Assembly (NCBI GenBank): GCA_022567655.1
Contig: JADFGO010000002.1
Location: forward strand, 1-52,943
Source: Fidelibacterota bacterium
Lineage (GTDB): Bacteria; Fidelibacterota; SORT01
Direction of reading: 5' to 3'
Length of the DNA stretch: 52,943 nucleotides
Shown: positions 8,306 through 43,544 of the stretch, in pieces
Layout: each line of letters starts with the position of its first letter
Position numbering within the stretch: position 1 is the first letter of the stretch
The notes under the pieces: model-generated
Told to the model about the DNA's origin: nothing
Databases searched by the model: none
What the model saw: only the letters and a program-made list of their open reading frames with translations
Translations under genes and position numbers: made by a program

Positions 8306-10734
8306 AACTTGAGCGTGACAGTTATATATGCGTTTCTTAAGGCGGCGGGAATATATTCGGGAATAAATCCCTGATAGTAGTACACGTAGCCGCTGGTCTC
8401 ATATTTCGTATCAAGAATATTATTGACGTTAAGCTGGATTCGGATAGGAATAGCGTTTCCGGCGTTGTTATAGTCATAACTCAGGAAGAAATTAACAATC
8501 CTATGTGCGTTTATCGATAAATCAGCTGTTCCGGAATTGTCAAGAAACTGCCCACCCACAAACCGTGTATAAAGGAACGATGAGATTGTACTTCCTCTGT
8601 ACCCTACCTTAATTCCCGCGAGGTAATCGGGAAAGCCGGAAATTTTATTGCCGGAACGGTCTATCGGAAACAGCTTCCCTTCGATGTCATATCCCGGTTC
8701 ATTGTAACTGACAAAGTAATTATCGTTGAGACTAAAATTTCCGGAGATATACGCCCCGTTCGTTAAAGACCAGGAAGCATCAGCCTCAATTCCCCGGTGA
8801 ATAGACTTCACGGCGTTGTAGTACAGTCTTAATCCGATATCGTCCACCTGTCCGGTCGGAACTATCTCATCCCTGAAGTCCATATAGAATAAATTAAGTT
8901 TCAAAAATGCATTTGAGTTCCGCCATGCGCCTCCGAGTTCGTAATCATAGAGGGTTTCTTGTCCTATAAGCGGTTTGCTGAAGTTCGGTGTGCCGTCCGG
9001 GTTTAATTCAAAACGAGGTACGGCATAAGGGTCGTCGGCGTCATAAATGTCCGCGTCTCTCGGCTCGCGATTGGCAACGGAGAAATTGACAAATGCCGTT
9101 ATGCTGCTGTTCAGCCTGCGATTAATACCCATTCGGGGTGTGAGAAAGTTATAGTTCACACTGTATTCATAATCGTTTTTGAAGGCGCCTATCGGGTTCT
9201 GATCGAAATCATAGCCGATATGCTGATATTGAACGTCGAACATCAGGTCTGTATTTTCGTCTATACCGTATACTACGTGAGTGTAAATAGTGGAGGATTG
9301 TTTACCGGTTTCGTACCCGTAATATTTGTTGTTAGGCGGCGTTTGATTGTTCTCTTTTACCCAAATAACTTCACCCCAGTGCTTTGCGTTATAGAAGCTG
9401 AACTCTGCTCCCAATGCCAGCGACCAGCCGGCTTTCGTGAAAGTAAATCTGGGGAGCCATCCCCATTGTGATTTATCAACGTTCTTCTTTCGCACGAGGT
9501 CAGTGGTTTCAACACCAACGAGGTTATACTCGACAGGATTTCTGTCAGATTTATAATCCTGAAAGAAACCGTCGCCCTTTACATGGAAGAAGGTGTTCTC
9601 GAATCTGATTTGTTCATTTATTCTCCAGTCGTTGATTAACTGATAGTGGCTTTGTAAAAAATCGTCCACCTGCTCGTCGAAGAATTCATTTTCTTCGCTT
9701 GGCGAATAAAAATTTGAGCGGCGCAGATCGTCATCATCTAAGAGATCCTTACCGATACCGAACCATGCGAATTTTGCCACCAATGGTCCACCGAATACGT
9801 TAAACGTGGTCGTCATATCACGGTCATAGCGGCTGCCGGATAAAAAATACGACCATGAATCGACGCCGGAGTCTGTCCGGTATCCGTCCGTTCGTAATTT
9901 GGAAAATCTTCCGTAGGCGGAATACTTGTTTTCAATGTAGCCGGTTCCAAAAGAAAAATTTAATCTTCGCGTATTGTAACTACCGGACGTTCCTGAAAGA
10001 GTAATTCCCGGTTCTGTGCCGGCGCCTTTCGTCAGTATATTAATCGAACCTCCGATAGCGGCAGTCCCATATAGTGAGTTACCGACGCCTCTTTGAACCT
10101 GAACGTCTTGTATATTGGCGGAGAGGTCTGCTATATCATAAAAATAAGTCACGTGGTCTTCCGGGTCGTTCAGCGGAACGCCATTCAGGGTTACGGCAAC
10201 TCTTGTGGCGTCAAAACCCCTGATTTTTATCTCCGTGTAACCCATTCCGCTTCCGGTCATGGAATAGGAGTAGAGGCTCGGGATTTCGTCGAGGAGCATC
10301 GGGAGTTCCTGAGAGGAATATTTTTCGGTCAGCGTCCTTGAATCCACATTACTGAATGCTACCGGGGTTTTCCCGCTGATCGCCCGGGTTGCGCTCACCA
10401 CAACGTTTTCTCCTTCGAGTATCCTCGGATAAAGAGAAAAGAGCACAGAAAGAGCGGTCTGTCCGACCGTTATCTTTTGTTTCCGGACATCGTACCCGAT
10501 CACACCCGCGCTTATGGTGAATTCTCCGGCCGGCACGCCGCGAATAATGAATTGACCGCTTTCATTTGTGGCGGCGCCGAACGTAGTGCCTTCTATGAGT
10601 ACGTTAGCTCCAAAAATAGGCTTGTTATCTATGGCGTTTCTTACGCTGCCTGATATTTCACTGCTGATTTGAGCGTTGGAGAATATTGGAACGAGTGTAA
10701 TAATTACTCCGGTGATGATATTCAGATAATTCAT
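8302..10734 (-). CDS. TonB-dependent outer-membrane receptor (thiamine-regulated)
   Basis: It has the signal peptide MNYLNIITGVIITLVPIFSNAQ, a CarboxypepD_reg-like N-domain, a plug, and a beta-barrel ending YITVTLKF. The ORF-track start at 10809 would translate the riboswitch. The ATG at 10734 has GGAGGGAGG 4 nt upstream. Confidence 0.9.
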   Translation of the reverse strand: MNYLNIITGVIITLVPIFSNAQISSEISGSVRNAIDNKPIFGANVLIEGTTFGAATNESGQFIIRGVPAGEFTISAGVIGYDVRKQKITVGQTALSVLFSLYPRILEGENVVVSATRAISGKTPVAFSNVDSRTLTEKYSSQELPMLLDEIPSLYSYSMTGSGMGYTEIKIRGFDATRVAVTLNGVPLNDPEDHVTYFYDIADLSANIQDVQVQRGVGNSLYGTAAIGGSINILTKGAGTEPGITLSGTSGSYNTRRLNFSFGTGYIENKYSAYGRFSKLRTDGYRTDSGVDSWSYFLSGSRYDRDMTTTFNVFGGPLVAKFAWFGIGKDLLDDDDLRRSNFYSPSEENEFFDEQVDDFLQSHYQLINDWRINEQIRFENTFFHVKGDGFFQDYKSDRNPVEYNLVGVETTDLVRKKNVDKSQWGWLPRFTFTKAGWSLALGAEFSFYNAKHWGEVIWVKENNQTPPNNKYYGYETGKQSSTIYTHVVYGIDENTDLMFDVQYQHIGYDFDQNPIGAFKNDYEYSVNYNFLTPRMGINRRLNSSITAFVNFSVANREPRDADIYDADDPYAVPRFELNPDGTPNFSKPLIGQETLYDYELGGAWRNSNAFLKLNLFYMDFRDEIVPTGQVDDIGLRLYYNAVKSIHRGIEADASWSLTNGAYISGNFSLNDNYFVSYNEPGYDIEGKLFPIDRSGNKISGFPDYLAGIKVGYRGSTISSFLYTRFVGGQFLDNSGTADLSINAHRIVNFFLSYDYNNAGNAIPIRIQLNVNNILDTKYETSGYVYYYQGFIPEYIPAALRNAYITVTLKF

Positions 10735-10741
10735 TTTGCCT

Positions 10742-10814
10742 CCCTCCGCTGGTATTATCCAGATCAGGTTGTAAGGGTATGTTCTCAGGCGGTATGGAGG
10801 AACCGCCACCCCTG
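10742..10814 (-). promoter_or_regulatory. TPP (THI-box) riboswitch
   Basis: The minus-strand RNA reads GGGGUGGCGGUUCCUCCAUACCGCCUGAGAACAUACCCUUACAACCUGAUCUGGAUAAUACCAGCGGAGGGAGG. This contains the conserved CUGAGA and ACCUGAUCUGGAUAAUACCAGCG blocks, colinear with E. coli thiM. The 3' end merges with the SD of the receptor gene. Confidence 0.95.
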
Positions 10815-10827
10815 TTGTTTCTCTGAT

Positions 10828-10856: not shown

Positions 10857-10866
10857 TACTCTGTTT

Positions 10867-11092
10867 TGTGCGGTCGGGACTTGCCCTCTTTTCAAAGGAG
10901 GGGATACGAAACCTCCTCCCTCGAGGGAGGTGTCCCGAAGCTTCGGGACGGACCTGCCCGACTAATGTCAGGCGGGGGGTGTGATTCTGATGTTTTCTTC
11001 AAAAATATCGTCACCGAACGATTACACCCCTCGTCCCGGCAGCTGCCGGGACACTCCCCTCAAGGGGAGAGAATCTGAGGTGCAGTCGGGGG
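10867..11092. repeat. Composite hairpin-mosaic element, copy A (right end truncated)
   Basis: Colinear with 11559-11812. The 88-nt core 10949-11036 matches 11654-11741 at 87/88 positions. It starts with TGTGCGGTCGGGACTTGCCC. Confidence 0.9.
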
Positions 11093-11103
11093 TTAACGAT
11101 ATG

Positions 11104-11133
11104 ACAAAAACCTCTTAAAAACCGTTTTAAGAG
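11104..11133 (-). terminator. Rho-independent terminator of the merT-like gene
   Basis: The minus strand reads CTCTTAAAA-cggt-TTTTAAGAG followed by GTTTTTGT. The stem is a perfect 9 bp, 47 nt after the stop codon. Confidence 0.7.
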
Positions 11134-11179
11134 TTAACACGTGCTGCCTGTACTCAGATGAGTAGAGGGAAAAAGTTAA

Positions 11180-11533
11180 TCAGCGATTATAGACAAACGT
11201 AACGACTTCAGGGAGGAGCTTAAAAGCGATTATCAATCCGTAAGAACTCCAGAGCACTGCCTTGCGCCAGTTACGTCGTTCAACGGATCTGCCCTCATCG
11301 GAAATTTTGACGGAGGAAGAGGCAGTTCCGTTTTTTCCATATTCCATGTAGTAGGCTGCACCGAGCAGTAGGATTGTAGCGGTTACATTATAAATTCTGT
11401 TCTCGGCAAACCACGGACCGACGTTGAGTCCCCCGAGCCCGATCAGGTTCAAAGTAGCGGGACCTACGCAGCAGAGCGTGGACATGAATCCCGTGACTAT
11501 CGCCGCCGTCGATGCAAACAAACTCCAGATCAT
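11180..11533 (-). CDS. MerT-like small membrane protein (N-terminal CC motif)
   Basis: 117 aa. FMSTLCCVGPATLNLIGLGG..PW aligns with MerT ILASTCCLGPLVLVALGFSGAW, and length and TM layout match MerT (116 aa). The cytoplasmic-loop Cys pair of MerT is absent. Confidence 0.55.
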   Translation of the reverse strand: MIWSLFASTAAIVTGFMSTLCCVGPATLNLIGLGGLNVGPWFAENRIYNVTATILLLGAAYYMEYGKNGTASSSVKISDEGRSVERRNWRKAVLWSSYGLIIAFKLLPEVVTFVYNR

Positions 11534-11558
11534 TTCAAATTTTCCATCTTACACTTTC

Positions 11559-11812
11559 TGTGCGAGTCAGGGCTTGCCCGACTTTACAAAGGAGGGGAAA
11601 CGAAACCTCCTCCCTCGAGGGAGGTGTCCCGTCCCGAAGTTTCGGGATCGGGACGGACCTGCCCGACTAATGTCAGGCGGGGGGTGTGATTTTGATGTTT
11701 TCTTCAAAAATATCGTCACCGAACGATTACACCCCTCGTCCGGCTGAGCCGGACACTCCCCTCAAGGGGAGAGAATCTGAGGTGCGGGTCGGGACAAACC
11801 CTGACTGCCACA
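11559..11812. repeat. Composite hairpin-mosaic element, copy B (complete, with inverted terminal units)
   Basis: It is a direct repeat of copy A. The termini GTGCGAGTCAGGGCTTGCCCGAC (11560-11582) and GTCGGGACAAACCCTGACTGCCAC (11788-11811) are inverted repeats of each other. The element begins 25 nt upstream of the merT-like start codon. Confidence 0.9.
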
Positions 11813-16934: not shown

Positions 16935-18310
16935 TAAGATACTTGCTCGAGCCGTACGGTGAAATGACGCAAAACGGGAGCTTCGTAAGTGATTTTCAAT
17001 CCCTTGATCTTTTCGCGGTTCTTGTAAAGATTTATCAACGCCTCAGCGACATAGTTCATCTGCATATTCGTATAGACCCTTCTTGGAATCGCAAGCCTGA
17101 CGAGCTCGAGGTCGGGATATACGGTTTCTCCCGTTTCCGGATCTTTATGAGCAAACATCAGACTGCCGATCTCAACCGCTCTTACACCTGCTTCAATATA
17201 AAGAGCCGCAGTGAGCGCCTGGGCGGGAAATTGGTCGCGGGGAATATTCGGCAGGAAACCGAGAGCGTCTATATAGATCGCATGACCTCCGGGAGGAAGG
17301 ACTATCGGAATTCCGTTTTCGGTGAGCATCTCGCCGAGGTTTCCGACCTGGTTTATCCGAAACGAGAGATACTCTTCGTCCGTTACCTCACCGAGACCGA
17401 CTGCGATTGCTTCGAGGTCTCTTCCCGCCAATCCGCCGTAGGTAGGGAACCCTTCCACGAGTATGAGCAGGTTAGTGATCTTTTCCGCTATTTCGTCAGA
17501 GTTGAGAGCAACGAAGCCGCCTATGTTGACAAGTCCGTCCTTTTTTGCGCTCATCGTACAGCCGTCGGCGTAAGAGAACATCTCTTTTGCTATATCCCTA
17601 ATCAAATGATCCGAATAACCTTCTTCCCGCTGCTTTATGAAATAAGCGTTCTCGGCAAAACGGCAGGCATCAAGAATAAATGAAATTCCATTTGCGTGCA
17701 GCAGTTCGCTTGTTCCTTTGATGTTCTGCATGCTGACCGGCTGGCCGCCGCCCGTATTATTGGTTACGGTCAGCATTCCCAGCGGTATATTTTCTTTGCC
17801 GTGTTCGAGAATGGTCTTCTCCAATTTTTCCAGGTCGATATTTCCTTTGAACGGATGTAGATTGGAGGGGTCCTTAGCCTCATCGATAACTAAATCCAGC
17901 GCAATTCCATTGTTTTGTTCGACGTTCGCTCTCGTGGTGTCGAAATGACTGTTATTAGGTATGAAGTCTCCCTCTTTTACGACTGAAGAAAAGAGTAAAT
18001 TTTCCGCCATTCGACCCTGATGTGTGGGAATTATATGCGAGTATCCCGTCAGGTCTCGAATCACCTTTTCGAAGTGAAAATAGTTCTTGCTGCCGGCGTA
18101 AGATTCATCTCCTATCATCATCGCGGCCCATTGTTTGTCCGACATGGCGCTCGTGCCGCTGTCGGTCAACAAATCGATATAGACGCTTTCGGCTGGCAGG
18201 TTGAAGACGTTAAATCCTGCTTCATGAAGAAGCTCTTTCCGTTCGGAGTTTGTCGTCCTTTTGAGAAGCTCTACTACCTTTATTCTGAAAGGTTCGGAAG
18301 GATATTTCAT
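16934..18310 (-). CDS. tnaA: Tryptophanase-family beta-eliminating lyase (TnaA / tyrosine phenol-lyase family)
   Basis: 458 aa, colinear with TnaA/TPL (EPFRIK, DLLTDSGT, PLP-lysine SAKKDGLVNIGG, FAENAYFIKQRE, EGFPTYGGL, LRHFT). Substrate specificity between Trp and Tyr cannot be decided by eye. Confidence 0.85.
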   Translation of the reverse strand: MKYPSEPFRIKVVELLKRTTNSERKELLHEAGFNVFNLPAESVYIDLLTDSGTSAMSDKQWAAMMIGDESYAGSKNYFHFEKVIRDLTGYSHIIPTHQGRMAENLLFSSVVKEGDFIPNNSHFDTTRANVEQNNGIALDLVIDEAKDPSNLHPFKGNIDLEKLEKTILEHGKENIPLGMLTVTNNTGGGQPVSMQNIKGTSELLHANGISFILDACRFAENAYFIKQREEGYSDHLIRDIAKEMFSYADGCTMSAKKDGLVNIGGFVALNSDEIAEKITNLLILVEGFPTYGGLAGRDLEAIAVGLGEVTDEEYLSFRINQVGNLGEMLTENGIPIVLPPGGHAIYIDALGFLPNIPRDQFPAQALTAALYIEAGVRAVEIGSLMFAHKDPETGETVYPDLELVRLAIPRRVYTNMQMNYVAEALINLYKNREKIKGLKITYEAPVLRHFTVRLEQVS

Positions 18311-18412
18311 TAGTGTTGTCTCCTATGGGAACTCAAATTTCTTTTTAACTTATTTCCTCCACAGGAGAAAGTCCATAGCGGGAACGAAGTAGATCAGGAT
18401 CGCACCAGAAGC

Positions 18413-19379
<967 letters not shown>

Positions 19380-41238: not shown

Positions 41239-41277
41239 AGGTTTCTCCGAATATAATTAAGCAAGTTAGATTTTGTT

Positions 41278-41548
41278 GTGCGAGTTAGGGCTTGCCCTGA
41301 CCGCAATCCCTTACACACCCTCCCGAAATAGAATCGGGATAAACTTCCTCCGGAAGGAGTTCCTTCGGAACACCCCTCTTATTAGAGGAGAATAATCGGT
41401 ATTTTTTATTGGAAAACCACCCCTTGTGTTCCCCTCCTTGGGAAGGAGGGGATATGTAGGGACAACTCAAGAGTTGTCCACAGGTATTTACCCGCTTTTT
41501 TCCGGGCGATTCCCCGCTTTCTTCGGGGTAAACGTGAATCGCCCCTAC
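41278..41548. repeat. Intergenic hairpin-unit cluster 6
   Basis: It starts with GTGCGAGTTAGGGCTTGCCCTGAC and ends with the 45-nt two-hairpin unit at 41504-41548. It also contains AACCACCCCTTGTGTTCCCCTCCTTG..AAGGAGGGGA (also at 42243-42283). Confidence 0.9.
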
Positions 41549-41553
41549 AATAA

Positions 41554-42009
41554 CTAAATATTTTCGAACGTCTTGATAAGGATTTCCTTCAGCATTCTTC
41601 TTTCGCGGACTGAGAGTATCGATTCAAATTTATCTGTGACCTCCCGCTCTATTCGGGGGATCATCTTATCGGCGAGGTTCCTTCCCTTGTGAGTCAGATT
41701 TACCCTGTGGAAGCGTTTATCTTCCGGCGGGCTTTCGCGCGAAATGAATTCCTTTTCCAGCATTCTAAGGAGAACTCCGGACGTATTCCCTTTCGACCAC
41801 TGGAGTTTTTCCGTTATCCCCTTTTGAGTCAGCCCGTCGGGATTTACCCAGAGGAGCGCAAGAACCTCAAATTGAGGCGACGTGAGATTATATCTCTTGT
41901 AGGTATTGGCGAGTTTAGACTGCATCGCTGATTCGACGCGTGAGAGGTTTACCCACGCGAGCAGAGAATCGCTCACTTTTCTTCTTACCTGATTCTTTAG
42001 TAATTCCAT
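41554..42009 (-). CDS. MarR-family transcriptional regulator
   Basis: 151 aa with a winged-helix region (LTSPQFEVLALLW..GLTQKGITEKLQWSKGNTSGVLLRMLEKEFISR). Confidence 0.88.
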   Translation of the reverse strand: MELLKNQVRRKVSDSLLAWVNLSRVESAMQSKLANTYKRYNLTSPQFEVLALLWVNPDGLTQKGITEKLQWSKGNTSGVLLRMLEKEFISRESPPEDKRFHRVNLTHKGRNLADKMIPRIEREVTDKFESILSVRERRMLKEILIKTFENI

Positions 42010-42042
42010 AGTAGGATGTAGTTTAAGTATAAACTAAAATCC

Positions 42043-42088
42043 CGTTTTGTCAAGTAAAATTTCTTTTAATATCCCTGTTACATATTAT
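42043..42088 (+). repeat. 46-bp direct repeat, copy 1 (marR-proximal promoter region)
   Basis: CGTTTTGTCAAGTAAAATTTCTTTTAATATCCCTGTTACATATTAT matches 42555-42600 at 42/46 positions. It contains a TTGACA -35 for marR on the minus strand. Confidence 0.9.
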
Positions 42089-42098
42089 GAAAAATATA

Positions 42099-42547
42099 GT
42101 GCGAGTCGGGGCTTGCCCTGACCGGTGAACAGGTGAGTCAGCATCATCGAAATCCATGACTGTCGCAAAGAGCGTGAACGCCCTTCGAGTAATAATCGTT
42201 GATCATATAACCCAGCCATAAATGGCTGAGCTAAAGAAATGAGAACCACCCCTTGTGTTCCCCTCCTTGCGTAAGGAGGGGAAGATTTATCCCATCTTCG
42301 ATGTGGGATACGTAGGGGAGGGTTTATTAACCCTCCCGCGTTAGAGGGCAGGCCCGCCTGGCCAGCTCGGCATCGGTCTGACGGGCAAGAAGTCGGGCAG
42401 GTCACAGACCTGCCCCTACCTTGACACACCCCGTTCGGCTGAGCCGGATGACCGGCACTCTTAGGTGGCGCAGTCACCGAAGGTGCCTGCGTTATACTAT
42501 TGTGAAAAGATCGCAGGCATCACGTTGCGTCATGATGACTGCGCCAC
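42099..42547. repeat. Intergenic hairpin-unit cluster 7 (flanked by the 46-bp direct repeats)
   Basis: It starts with GTGCGAGTCGGGGCTTGCCCTGAC and ends with the inverted GTGG-headed doublet at 42465-42547. It shares more than 6 units with clusters 3, 4 and 6. Confidence 0.9.
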
Positions 42548-42554
42548 ATTATAG

Positions 42555-42600
42555 CGTTTTCTCAAGTAAAATTTCTTTTAATATCCCTGTTGCGTGTTAT
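42555..42600 (+). repeat. 46-bp direct repeat, copy 2 (yjbQ-proximal promoter region)
   Basis: CGTTTTCTCAAGTAAAATTTCTTTTAATATCCCTGTTGCGTGTTAT. Its 3' end supplies TTGCGT, followed by 17 nt and TAGATT upstream of yjbQ. Confidence 0.9.
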
Positions 42601-42647
42601 AAGACACAACGATAGATTAATGGGTTGAGAAATGTTGGAGGAGTTCA

Positions 42648-43067
42648 TTGAAATCTTTAACTGAAAAATTGGTGTTCAACGTACCAACGAGGCGGGACTA
42701 TATTAATATCACTCCGCAGGTAGAAGAACTTGTGGAACGCTCAGACGTAATGGAAGGTTTAGTACTCTGCAACGCCATGCACATAACGGCTTCGGTCTAT
42801 ATCAACGATGACGAATCGGGCTTGATCGAAGATTATGACGAATGGCTCGAGCAGCTTGCCCCCCACGAGCCGGTAAGCAAATACAGGCACAACAGAACGG
42901 GCGAAGATAATGCGGACGCACACCTTAAAAGGCAGATAATGGGTAGGGAAGTTACCGTTGCCATCACGGACGGTAAACTCGACCTCGGACCCTGGGAACA
43001 GATATTCTATGCGGAGTTCGACGGCAGACGGCAGAAAAGAGTAATGATCAAAATCATAGGGGAATAA
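42648..43067 (+). CDS. yjbQ: YjbQ/UPF0047 family protein (secondary thiamine-phosphate synthase family)
   Basis: 139 aa with [28 protein letters not shown] and a GPWEQIF pattern. Confidence 0.85.
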
Positions 43068-43079
43068 ATTTAATTGACT

Positions 43080-43544
43080 ATGAATTTATATCTGGTCAGA
43101 CATGGAAAACCTGTTGCGGATTATGAATCCGGCGATCCCCCGTTAAGCCCCGAGGGAGAATCAGAGGTGGCGCTCGTAGCCTCAAAATTATCAGAAATGG
43201 ATGTTAACGTTGACGAGATATATCACAGCGGAAAGCTTCGTGCGGAGCAGACAGCAGGGATAATTCAGAAGTCTGTCGCGCCGGATGTTGAGCCGTCTTT
43301 CAGGGAGGGATTAAAGCCCAACGATCCCGTTGCCGGGATTGCCGATGATATGAATGCGGCAGAACAAAACACGATGCTGGTCGGGCACCTGCCTTTTATG
43401 GACAAGATAGCCGCATTTCTTTTAGATCGATCCCATGATAAATCGGGGCTCGCCTTCCGTACCGCAACCGTGGTATGTTTTGAACGGAGGGAAAATGATA
43501 AATGGGAGCTTCTGTGGACAGTTTCTCCTGATGATGCCGTTTAA
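43080..43544 (+). CDS. sixA: SixA-like phosphohistidine phosphatase (histidine phosphatase superfamily)
   Basis: MNLYLVRHG (RHG motif) and VGHLPFM. The ORF track starts 2 codons earlier, at the TTG at 43074. Confidence 0.75.
   Translation: MNLYLVRHGKPVADYESGDPPLSPEGESEVALVASKLSEMDVNVDEIYHSGKLRAEQTAGIIQKSVAPDVEPSFREGLKPNDPVAGIADDMNAAEQNTMLVGHLPFMDKIAAFLLDRSHDKSGLAFRTATVVCFERRENDKWELLWTVSPDDAV

Follow-up and report, generated by a model that had tools for sequence, protein, structure and literature searches.

The stretch of DNA analysed here, referred to as the window, comprises 52,943 nucleotides of contig JADFGO010000002.1 from a Fidelibacterota bacterium (assembly GCA_022567655.1). Between a marR-family regulator gene and the divergently transcribed yjbQ gene it carries an insert of hairpins of the repetitive extragenic palindromic (REP) type, flanked on both sides by copies of a 46-nt segment. 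We propose, with a probability of about 0.7, that this 46-nt target was duplicated when REP DNA was inserted between staggered strand breaks, that the REP-associated tyrosine transposase (RAYT) of the genome was the likely agent, and that both promoters were kept in the process. The same footprint of target, insert and target was found next to the main REP family at about 5 other loci of this genome and at 4 in relatives, making some ten cases overall. The more general idea that the RAYT/REP system of this Marinimicrobia family inserts by a route making long target duplications of variable length (16-61 bp) is put forward tentatively, at somewhat less than even odds.

A repeat search and direct comparison place the direct repeat CGTTTT[G/C]TCAAGTAAAATTTCTTTTAATATCCCTGTT[ACATA/GCGTG]TTAT at 42043-42088 (plus strand; copy A, on the marR side) and at 42555-42600 (plus strand; copy B, on the yjbQ side), with a spacing of 512 nt. 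The copies are identical at 42/46 positions (91%), share a perfect core of 30 nt and differ at repeat positions 7, 38, 40 and 42. The duplication had been described in the same terms, coordinates and counts included, by a sequence-only reading of this stretch, which also gave 10 and 7 nt of sequence plus a repeat cluster at 42099-42547 between the copies; the sequence bears out both descriptions. The 30-mer core has 2 matches in the window, compared with 0 in 100 shuffles, and even when up to three mismatches are allowed the whole 2,138,600-base genome holds the same 2 matches only. Because the core matches the genome at these two places only, the 46-mer is not another dispersed repeat unit, and the concern of the earlier reading that it might recur at many loci did not materialize.

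The genome is a metagenome-assembled genome (MAG) of Marinimicrobia in 150 contigs, 96.6% complete with a contamination of 3.85%. We compared the locus with three genomes from other genera of the same family (G002, and G001 and G003, which belong to one genus) and with a metagenome contig (L023). The gene order dxr-rseP-marR<>yjbQ-sixA-like is common to the window and these four relatives. The marR-family gene (41554..42009, minus strand) encodes 151 aa with a Pfam MarR domain (PF01047 at 2.7e-13), and its orthologues in the same synteny are 70-75% identical; yjbQ/UPF0047 (42648..43067, plus strand), recognized as an open reading frame (ORF) with a domain match, encodes 139 aa and has orthologues that are 82-86% identical. 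In the alignment the segment is single and hairpins are absent in every relative (4/4), which thus represents an empty site. This is the order of marR, single segment and yjbQ that the sequence-only reading had predicted for uninterrupted loci, and none of these array-less loci carries two copies.

The spacer lengths agree with the alignment. The marR-yjbQ spacer measures 123 bp in G001, 125 bp in G002, 111 bp in G003 and 123 bp in L023; that of the window measures 638 bp, and subtracting one copy and the insert (512 bp) leaves 126 bp. In the alignment with the relatives, the ancestral left flank is contiguous with copy A and copy B with the ancestral right flank. The architecture, ancestral left flank plus U, insert, U plus ancestral right flank (U being the duplicated target), is that of a target duplication. 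The ancestor had a compact divergent marR/yjbQ promoter of ~125 bp, much as the earlier reading had supposed in proposing that such a promoter was duplicated along with the array, and in the lineage of this genome REP-type hairpin DNA entered it between the -35 element of marR and that of yjbQ. Both -35 boxes are covered by the 46 bp found today on either side of the insert. Closer relatives or population variants sought by exact-protein look-ups gave no match, and the sole yield of a metagenome scan for closer relatives was a 71%-identical relative, again with an empty site.

The contiguity of each copy with its own flank also bears on whether the arrangement was created by metagenome assembly through the joining of strain variants. 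The MAG consists of 150 contigs with 3.85% contamination, and many of its contigs end in REP arrays, which gives some reason to consider such an artefact. However, four differences separate the copies, each copy continues into the ancestral flank that belongs to it, and no assembly-graph path gives copy-insert-copy unless that order is in the DNA. The same architecture moreover occurs in five independent assemblies. We consider an artefact to be of negligible probability.

Both promoters appear to have survived the insertion. The marR promoter TTGACA-16-TATACT (42026..42053, minus strand) scores 11/12 in a promoter scan; its -35 box (42053-42048) lies inside copy A, and its -10 box, which reaches 42026, lies outside. 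GTCAAG and AAGTATAAAC are conserved in 4/4 relatives. The proposed yjbQ promoter TTGCGT-17-TAGATT (42590..42618, plus strand) likewise has its -35 box (42590-42595) inside copy B and its -10 box (42613-42618) outside; this assignment is tentative at 7/12 in the scan, which is below threshold, and TTGCGA/TTGCGG-17-TAGATT is conserved in G002 and L023. We predict that marR is read from the -35 of copy A with its old -10 and operator, and yjbQ from the -35 of copy B with its old -10, in which case neither gene would have lost its promoter. As for the operator, the regulator has a MarR domain, and a palindrome AGTTTA-N4-TAAACT (42020..42035) lies over the marR -10, outside the duplication, with (G)GTTTAAGTATAAAC kept in 4/4 relatives. 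This palindrome is the best candidate for a MarR operator, better than the duplicated 30-bp core, and after the insertion yjbQ is 512 bp further away from it.

The four differences between the copies fall on these promoter elements. As the sequence-only reading had pointed out, the contrasts TTGACA/TTGAGA on the minus strand and TTGCGT-17-TAGATT/TTACAT on the plus strand can be read directly from the sequence. According to the outgroups, the G at position 7 (minus-strand TTGACA) is ancestral and is retained by the marR-side copy, while the GCG at positions 38-42 (TTGCG.) is ancestral and is retained by the yjbQ-side copy. All four differences are derived and lie at the disused, insert-proximal ends, at most 8 nt from the junction, with the middle 30 nt unchanged: copy A has three derived G>A changes in or beside the yjbQ -35 (ACATA), and in copy B a derived G>C hits the marR -35 (TTGAGA). 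The copies had been called subfunctionalised, and descriptively the outgroups support this, each copy keeping the ancestral half that its neighbour uses; selection as the cause is less certain. A cause associated with the insertion itself is as good an explanation as relaxed selection, because the changes are junction-proximal and the same clustering is seen in an unrelated event in G002 (L067, below). Each of the three G>A changes replaces a G.T pair by an A.T pair in a 7-bp hairpin that is formed with the linker of the insert. Quasi-palindrome correction was rejected as their source, the hairpin reaching only -0.3 vs 0.0 kcal/mol and having no parallel in L067 or C103.

The insert (42089..42554) is a non-coding, REP/BIME-like hairpin mosaic of 466 bp (BIME, bacterial interspersed mosaic element) that is absent from 4/4 relatives. 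It is made up of a 10-nt linker GAAAAATATA, the hairpin mosaic at 42099-42547 and the 7 nt ATTATAG, and as single-stranded DNA it folds at -100.8 kcal/mol vs -66.4 +/- 5.2 for shuffles (z = -6.6). Its first unit (42099..42124, plus strand) is the REP GTGCGAGTCGGGGCTTGCCCTGACCG, a member of the family that flanks the RAYT gene of this genome and a candidate founder of the insertion. The last unit (42465..42547), identified by its inverted repeat and fold, is a GTGG-headed long nested hairpin, GTGGCGCAGTCA...TGACTGCGCCAC, with related units at C67 and C78. Other hairpin-forming units include GTAGGGGAGGGTTTATTAACCCTCCC, a short GC-rich imperfect palindrome, and GTAG/GTGG heads are found at 42310 and 42465 and, on the minus strand, at 42419. 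Most of the units recur 2-19 times elsewhere in the genome, and the longest stretches in common with other arrays measure 115 bp (89%) and 180-204 bp (70-75%).

These hairpins are REP/BIME-type repeats and form part of a REP/BIME-RAYT system. As is expected of REP/BIME repeats (20-40 nt), the repeat units across the genome are short, GC-rich stem-loop palindromes, here with GTGC, GTAG or GTGG heads, present as many dispersed extragenic copies in mosaics, and they make up ~178 clusters totalling 27 kb. An Rfam search of the array returned no family matches. The commonest family (core GTCRGGGCWWGCCCYGAC) has 48 copies here, compared with 12-22 in each of the five family relatives included in the REP/RAYT comparison, and its GTGC head, unlike the conserved 5' head GT(A/G)G of the GTAG-type superfamily, is a variant absent from the heads listed in the consulted sections of PMC3733652. 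The only Y1 transposase gene of the genome is a RAYT (C20:18206-18766; PF01797 at 6e-10; NF047646 at 89.2 bits vs a cut-off of 80), which is flanked by inverted copies of this main REP family (GTGGCAGTCAGGGCTTGCCCTGAC and its inverted partner). A search of the five relatives gave no homologue of the RAYT.

One further feature of the main family concerns strand polarity. The variant that is commonest in the relatives, GTTAGGGCTTGCCCTGAC (for example at 41284-41301 of the window), has a mismatch that forms a T.G wobble on one strand and a C.A on the other. A mismatch that is tolerable on one strand only hints that the form of the REP under selection, or the form that is copied, is a single strand with a fixed polarity.

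To follow the footprint beyond this locus, we compared the genome with itself, scanned all arrays flank against flank, and examined 55 same-family REP copies in the five relatives. The earlier reading had called the insertion mechanism unusual, and the further arrays with long flanking direct repeats that were found support and extend this view. At C103:12421/12649, two perfect 20-nt copies bracket an insert of 208 bp in the spacer upstream of a TRAM-domain methyltransferase-like gene; the 20-mer contains TTGACT, and the spacer is too diverged in genus g3 for a clean empty site. At C70:258/351 (258-372), two perfect 22-nt copies surround an insert of 71 bp with one REP in the last seven codons of a minus-strand gene, where the relic copy retains the ancestral stop TAG and the working gene now terminates at a TGA that the insert completes. 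At C20:17666/19130 (17666-19178), copies of 49 nt (43/49) flank an insert of 1415 bp at the 3' end of an acyl-CoA dehydrogenase gene. This insert holds several REPs, the RAYT and an ORF for an MntA-like nucleotidyltransferase, and in G001 and G003 the site is empty, with an uninterrupted acad-lipoprotein spacer. RAYTs are usually described as immobile; the arrangement at C20 suggests that the RAYT locus itself arrived or moved.

Other cases lie at the 3' ends of tRNA genes. An insert of 84 bp at C54:19106/19209 is bracketed by 19-nt copies (16/19) of a tRNA-Pro 3' end, and in G001 (L050) 18-nt copies of a tRNA-Pro 3' end flank 50 bp with a single REP; the corresponding tRNA in G003 has no REP or duplicate, and its downstream flank is not homologous, hence it is not a clean empty site. 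At C99:2669-3122 the 3' part of tRNA-Sec is present as three copies of 61 nt with REP blocks between them: behind the tRNA-Sec stand two units in tandem, each made up of a REP block and a 61-nt tRNA 3' copy, and the third copy is split by another REP. The remaining cases in relatives are L067 in G002, where 32-nt copies (27/32) flank 95 bp with one REP and G004 provides a clean single-copy empty site; L059 in G003, with copies of about 17-24 nt around 182 bp at a terminator hairpin; and L079 in G002, with 16-nt copies around 61 bp. In L067 the REP-adjoining copy has five derived changes in the junction-proximal 19 nt, and the other copy matches the outgroup. Target-copy lengths thus include 16, 18, 19, 20, 22, 32, 46, 49 and 61 nt.

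Controls indicate that such flanking repeats are rare by chance. Reversed flanks gave 0/31 and 1/55 at a score of at least 13, and random genomic sites gave 1/534 at a score of at least 16 (4/31 vs 1/534, Fisher p = 3.6e-5). In four events (C106, C103, C99 and C20) a GTGCG(A/G)GTYRGG REP marks one insert end at a distance of 9-22 nt from the junction, an arrangement found in 15/92 arrays of at least 100 bp. Events found later were left out of this comparison of end positions; they fit, with linkers of 2-63 nt. Besides a 28-29-nt REP, the inserts have unique filler to one side of it or to both. Several candidates were discarded as footprints, namely C131, C69, C67, C150, L072 and L094, whose flanking repeats are dispersed REP units, and C113, C24, C98, C53 and C35, which are gene or coding repeats without hairpins.

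Two additional loci in relatives have a comparable layout. In G001 (C12, L040:502-1549), the last 19 nt of tRNA-Ser(CGA), its 3' end, are repeated without mismatch 1 kb further downstream. A REP immediately follows the tRNA, and an uncharacterized ORF of ~190 aa stands between the copies; this could be a mini-island or another REP-linked duplication. In G003 (C41, L053:1433-2228), a 37-nt direct repeat (92%) brackets 722 bp with two REPs and an ORF for a small membrane protein of ~139 aa.

The recurrence of the footprint bears on a two-step history for the marR/yjbQ locus, in which the 46 bp were first duplicated in tandem by replication slippage and REPs were then inserted exactly at the junction of the copies. 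Such a history requires REPs to have arrived at the exact junction at ~ten independent loci. The genome self-comparison shows no insert-free tandem duplication of unique 16-60-nt sequence, none is present at any empty site, and no short direct repeats typical of slippage were found at the copy boundaries. Small tandem duplications are nevertheless common in bacteria, REP arrays do grow by accretion, as their mosaics of many families show, and no fixed copy length or junction motif points to an enzyme. Taken together, we consider it decidedly unlikely that tandem duplication came first.

Recombination between arrays is another conceivable route, either as an unequal crossover of alleles with arrays on opposite sides or as a Campbell-type integration of a circle carrying the 46-mer and the array. 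Arrays share blocks of 115-204 bp as potential homology, tandem clusters of REPINs (REP doublets forming hairpins) that include flanking sequence occur in Pseudomonas fluorescens SBW25 (PMC3116915), and C99 is a tandem amplification of tRNA fragment plus REP block. However, the crossover presupposes that REPs had already inserted twice, independently, on the two sides of these 46 bp, and either insertion would have disrupted a promoter; moreover, no circle or second allele is known. The single-REP events with duplications of 18-32 nt (L050, L067 and C70) offer no homology for recombination of this kind, and we regard recombination as very improbable.

Error-prone repair would account for several details of the events. 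If the promoter suffered a double-strand break or a fork collapse, template switching or end joining could have captured REP DNA during repair and copied the 46 nt again, with no direct role for the RAYT. Variable copy length, unique filler and clusters of junction-proximal mismatches resemble such repair, and REP hairpins are plausible obstacles to forks. Yet no microhomology was found at the copy/insert junctions, and neither a Ku gene nor a reverse transcriptase (RVT_1) was found in the 96.6%-complete genome, on which grounds non-homologous end joining and retrotransposition were also rejected. The strong link of one REP family with an insert end and the higher REP load only in the RAYT-bearing genome point instead to an element-specific process. 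Templated repair is in our view unlikely, and none of these alternatives explains the recurrence together with the REP-family association as simply as insertion between staggered breaks.

For insertion between staggered breaks, we envisage that the two target strands were broken ~46 nt apart, that the staggered ends were linked through REP DNA, and that fill-in of the single-stranded gaps would then have duplicated the target. The outcome would be no different if REP DNA had been captured between the end of a nascent strand and a displaced flap of the lagging strand. The genome's RAYT would be the likely agent, with the GTGCGAGTC...REP now found first in the insert as its substrate, because the association is family-specific and the REP load is higher only in the RAYT-bearing genome. 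The array may have come as a block or, more likely, grown later by accretion of REPs, since single-REP events with the same footprint exist; it need not have arrived as one piece. This mechanism, the action of the RAYT included, is inferred.

Several observations weigh against this interpretation. Copy lengths vary from 16 to 61 nt, and the junctions have neither a shared motif nor microhomology. No locus in the MAG has the same unit order as the 466-bp mosaic and could have served as its donor, and the filler of the small inserts has no match or donor in the assembly. All genomes compared are MAGs. The footprint is present at only about 5/158 arrays, and REPs may spread mainly by other means, with this as a rare side route. 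The cases at tRNA ends, C99 included, are ambiguous and could be remnants of integrase attachment (att) sites, because tRNA-Sec 3' fragments are dispersed in relatives: they occur at several separate loci in G001, G002 and G005, and two of them lie 4.7 kb apart in G002 (C66), like the att sites of islands. In addition, HUH transposases of the IS200/IS605 type, to which RAYTs are related, are stated to make no target duplications (PMC2817692).

We compared the footprint with those of known mobile elements. Insertion sequences (IS) and miniature transposable elements with inverted repeats (MITEs) give the same order of target, insert and target, with a single target at empty sites. Their target duplications are short, spanning about 2-14 bp, with one set length per element, whereas those described here are 16-61 bp and variable, the inserts lack a transposase except at C20, and there are no true terminal inverted repeats, only loosely similar outward-facing REP heads. 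An insertion of the IS/MITE type was rejected on the grounds of variable duplication length and missing terminal inverted repeats. Duplications of comparable size follow from widely staggered strand transfers, as in the duplication of the repeat by Cas1-Cas2 at CRISPR loci, the 14-15-bp duplications of casposons and the variable target-primed duplications of the type made by long interspersed nuclear elements (LINEs). There, cuts tens of nt apart with fill-in give such sizes, and variable second-strand cleavage gives variable lengths. The likeness is one of analogy only: the 466-bp insert is non-coding and without an integrase, and no reverse transcriptase was found in the genome.

Duplication of att sites by integrases resembles the cases at C54, L050, L040 and C99, in which direct repeats of tRNA 3' ends flank the inserts. 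Unlike integrase islands, these inserts consist of 50-470 bp of REP DNA with no integrase in or beside them, and the promoter and gene-end targets elsewhere are not tRNAs. For 42043-42600 an integrase-mediated island was rejected, the insert being non-coding and the target a promoter.

The biology of REP/BIME elements and RAYTs is well described (PMC2817692; PMC3116915; PMC3733652; PMC3184786). The present system shares with REP/BIME-RAYT and REPIN systems (Nunvar 2010, PMC2817692; Bertels and Rainey 2011, PMC3116915; Di Nocera 2013, PMC3733652) the GC-rich palindromes with GT(A/G/C)-type heads, the many extragenic copies in mosaics, the single RAYT gene between inverted cognate REPs and the higher REP load of the RAYT-bearing genome. 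It differs in that duplications of 16-61 nt of unique target bracket the insertions and in its host, a member of the Marinimicrobia, earlier RAYT/REP work having centred on Proteobacteria. The nearest description that we found is that of the tandem REPIN clusters of SBW25 (PMC3116915, Fig. S7), in which unique flank is repeated together with REPs, similar to C99. Those clusters are whole flank-REPIN-flank units in tandem, whereas the doubling at 42043-42600 concerns the target alone, with one insert (1.09 'units') and with outer joints that are ancestral. In the literature searched, which included PMC2817692, PMC3116915, PMC3733652 and PMC3184786, there is no description of long target duplications at REP insertions, which is not proof that none exists.

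The marR/yjbQ locus is one of about ten cases in which a long target duplication of variable length goes with a single REP family and its RAYT. The way in which REP and REPIN elements move has been an unsolved question since the 1980s; RAYT enzymes cut and join DNA in vitro, we know of no reconstitution of RAYT/REP insertion, and in the literature searched no footprint of such an insertion is reported. Pairs of filled and empty sites constrain the mechanism, since they call for strand breaks tens of nt apart, filler DNA and junction-proximal changes. If the proposed mechanism is correct, the duplications would be a new transposition footprint for HUH/RAYT-REP systems and a handle on how REPs move. 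REPs could then enter promoters, gene 3' ends, terminators and tRNA ends non-destructively, the RAYT's own locus bearing the same footprint, and the duplication would explain how they can settle in spacers as short and as dense in signals as those of a 2-Mb genome without inactivating genes. The locus itself would be a natural promoter duplication in which each copy is left serving one gene and yjbQ is parted from the putative MarR operator by 512 bp.

REP arrays also lie elsewhere in the neighbourhood. A second lineage-specific array (41239..41553) occupies the convergent rseP-marR spacer, which is 315 bp long compared with 25-63 bp in the relatives. In G002 and L023 this spacer has a single terminator-like hairpin, AAAGGGACTA...TAGTCCCTTT, instead of the array, and the array has replaced a simple terminator hairpin of this type. 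On the other side of the insert, yjbQ is followed by a gene for a sixA-like histidine phosphatase (43074-43544). Finally, a thiamine pyrophosphate (TPP) riboswitch (RF00059, 63 bits; 10724-10823 of the window, minus strand) adjoins a REP composite that brackets a small gene at 10864-11811.

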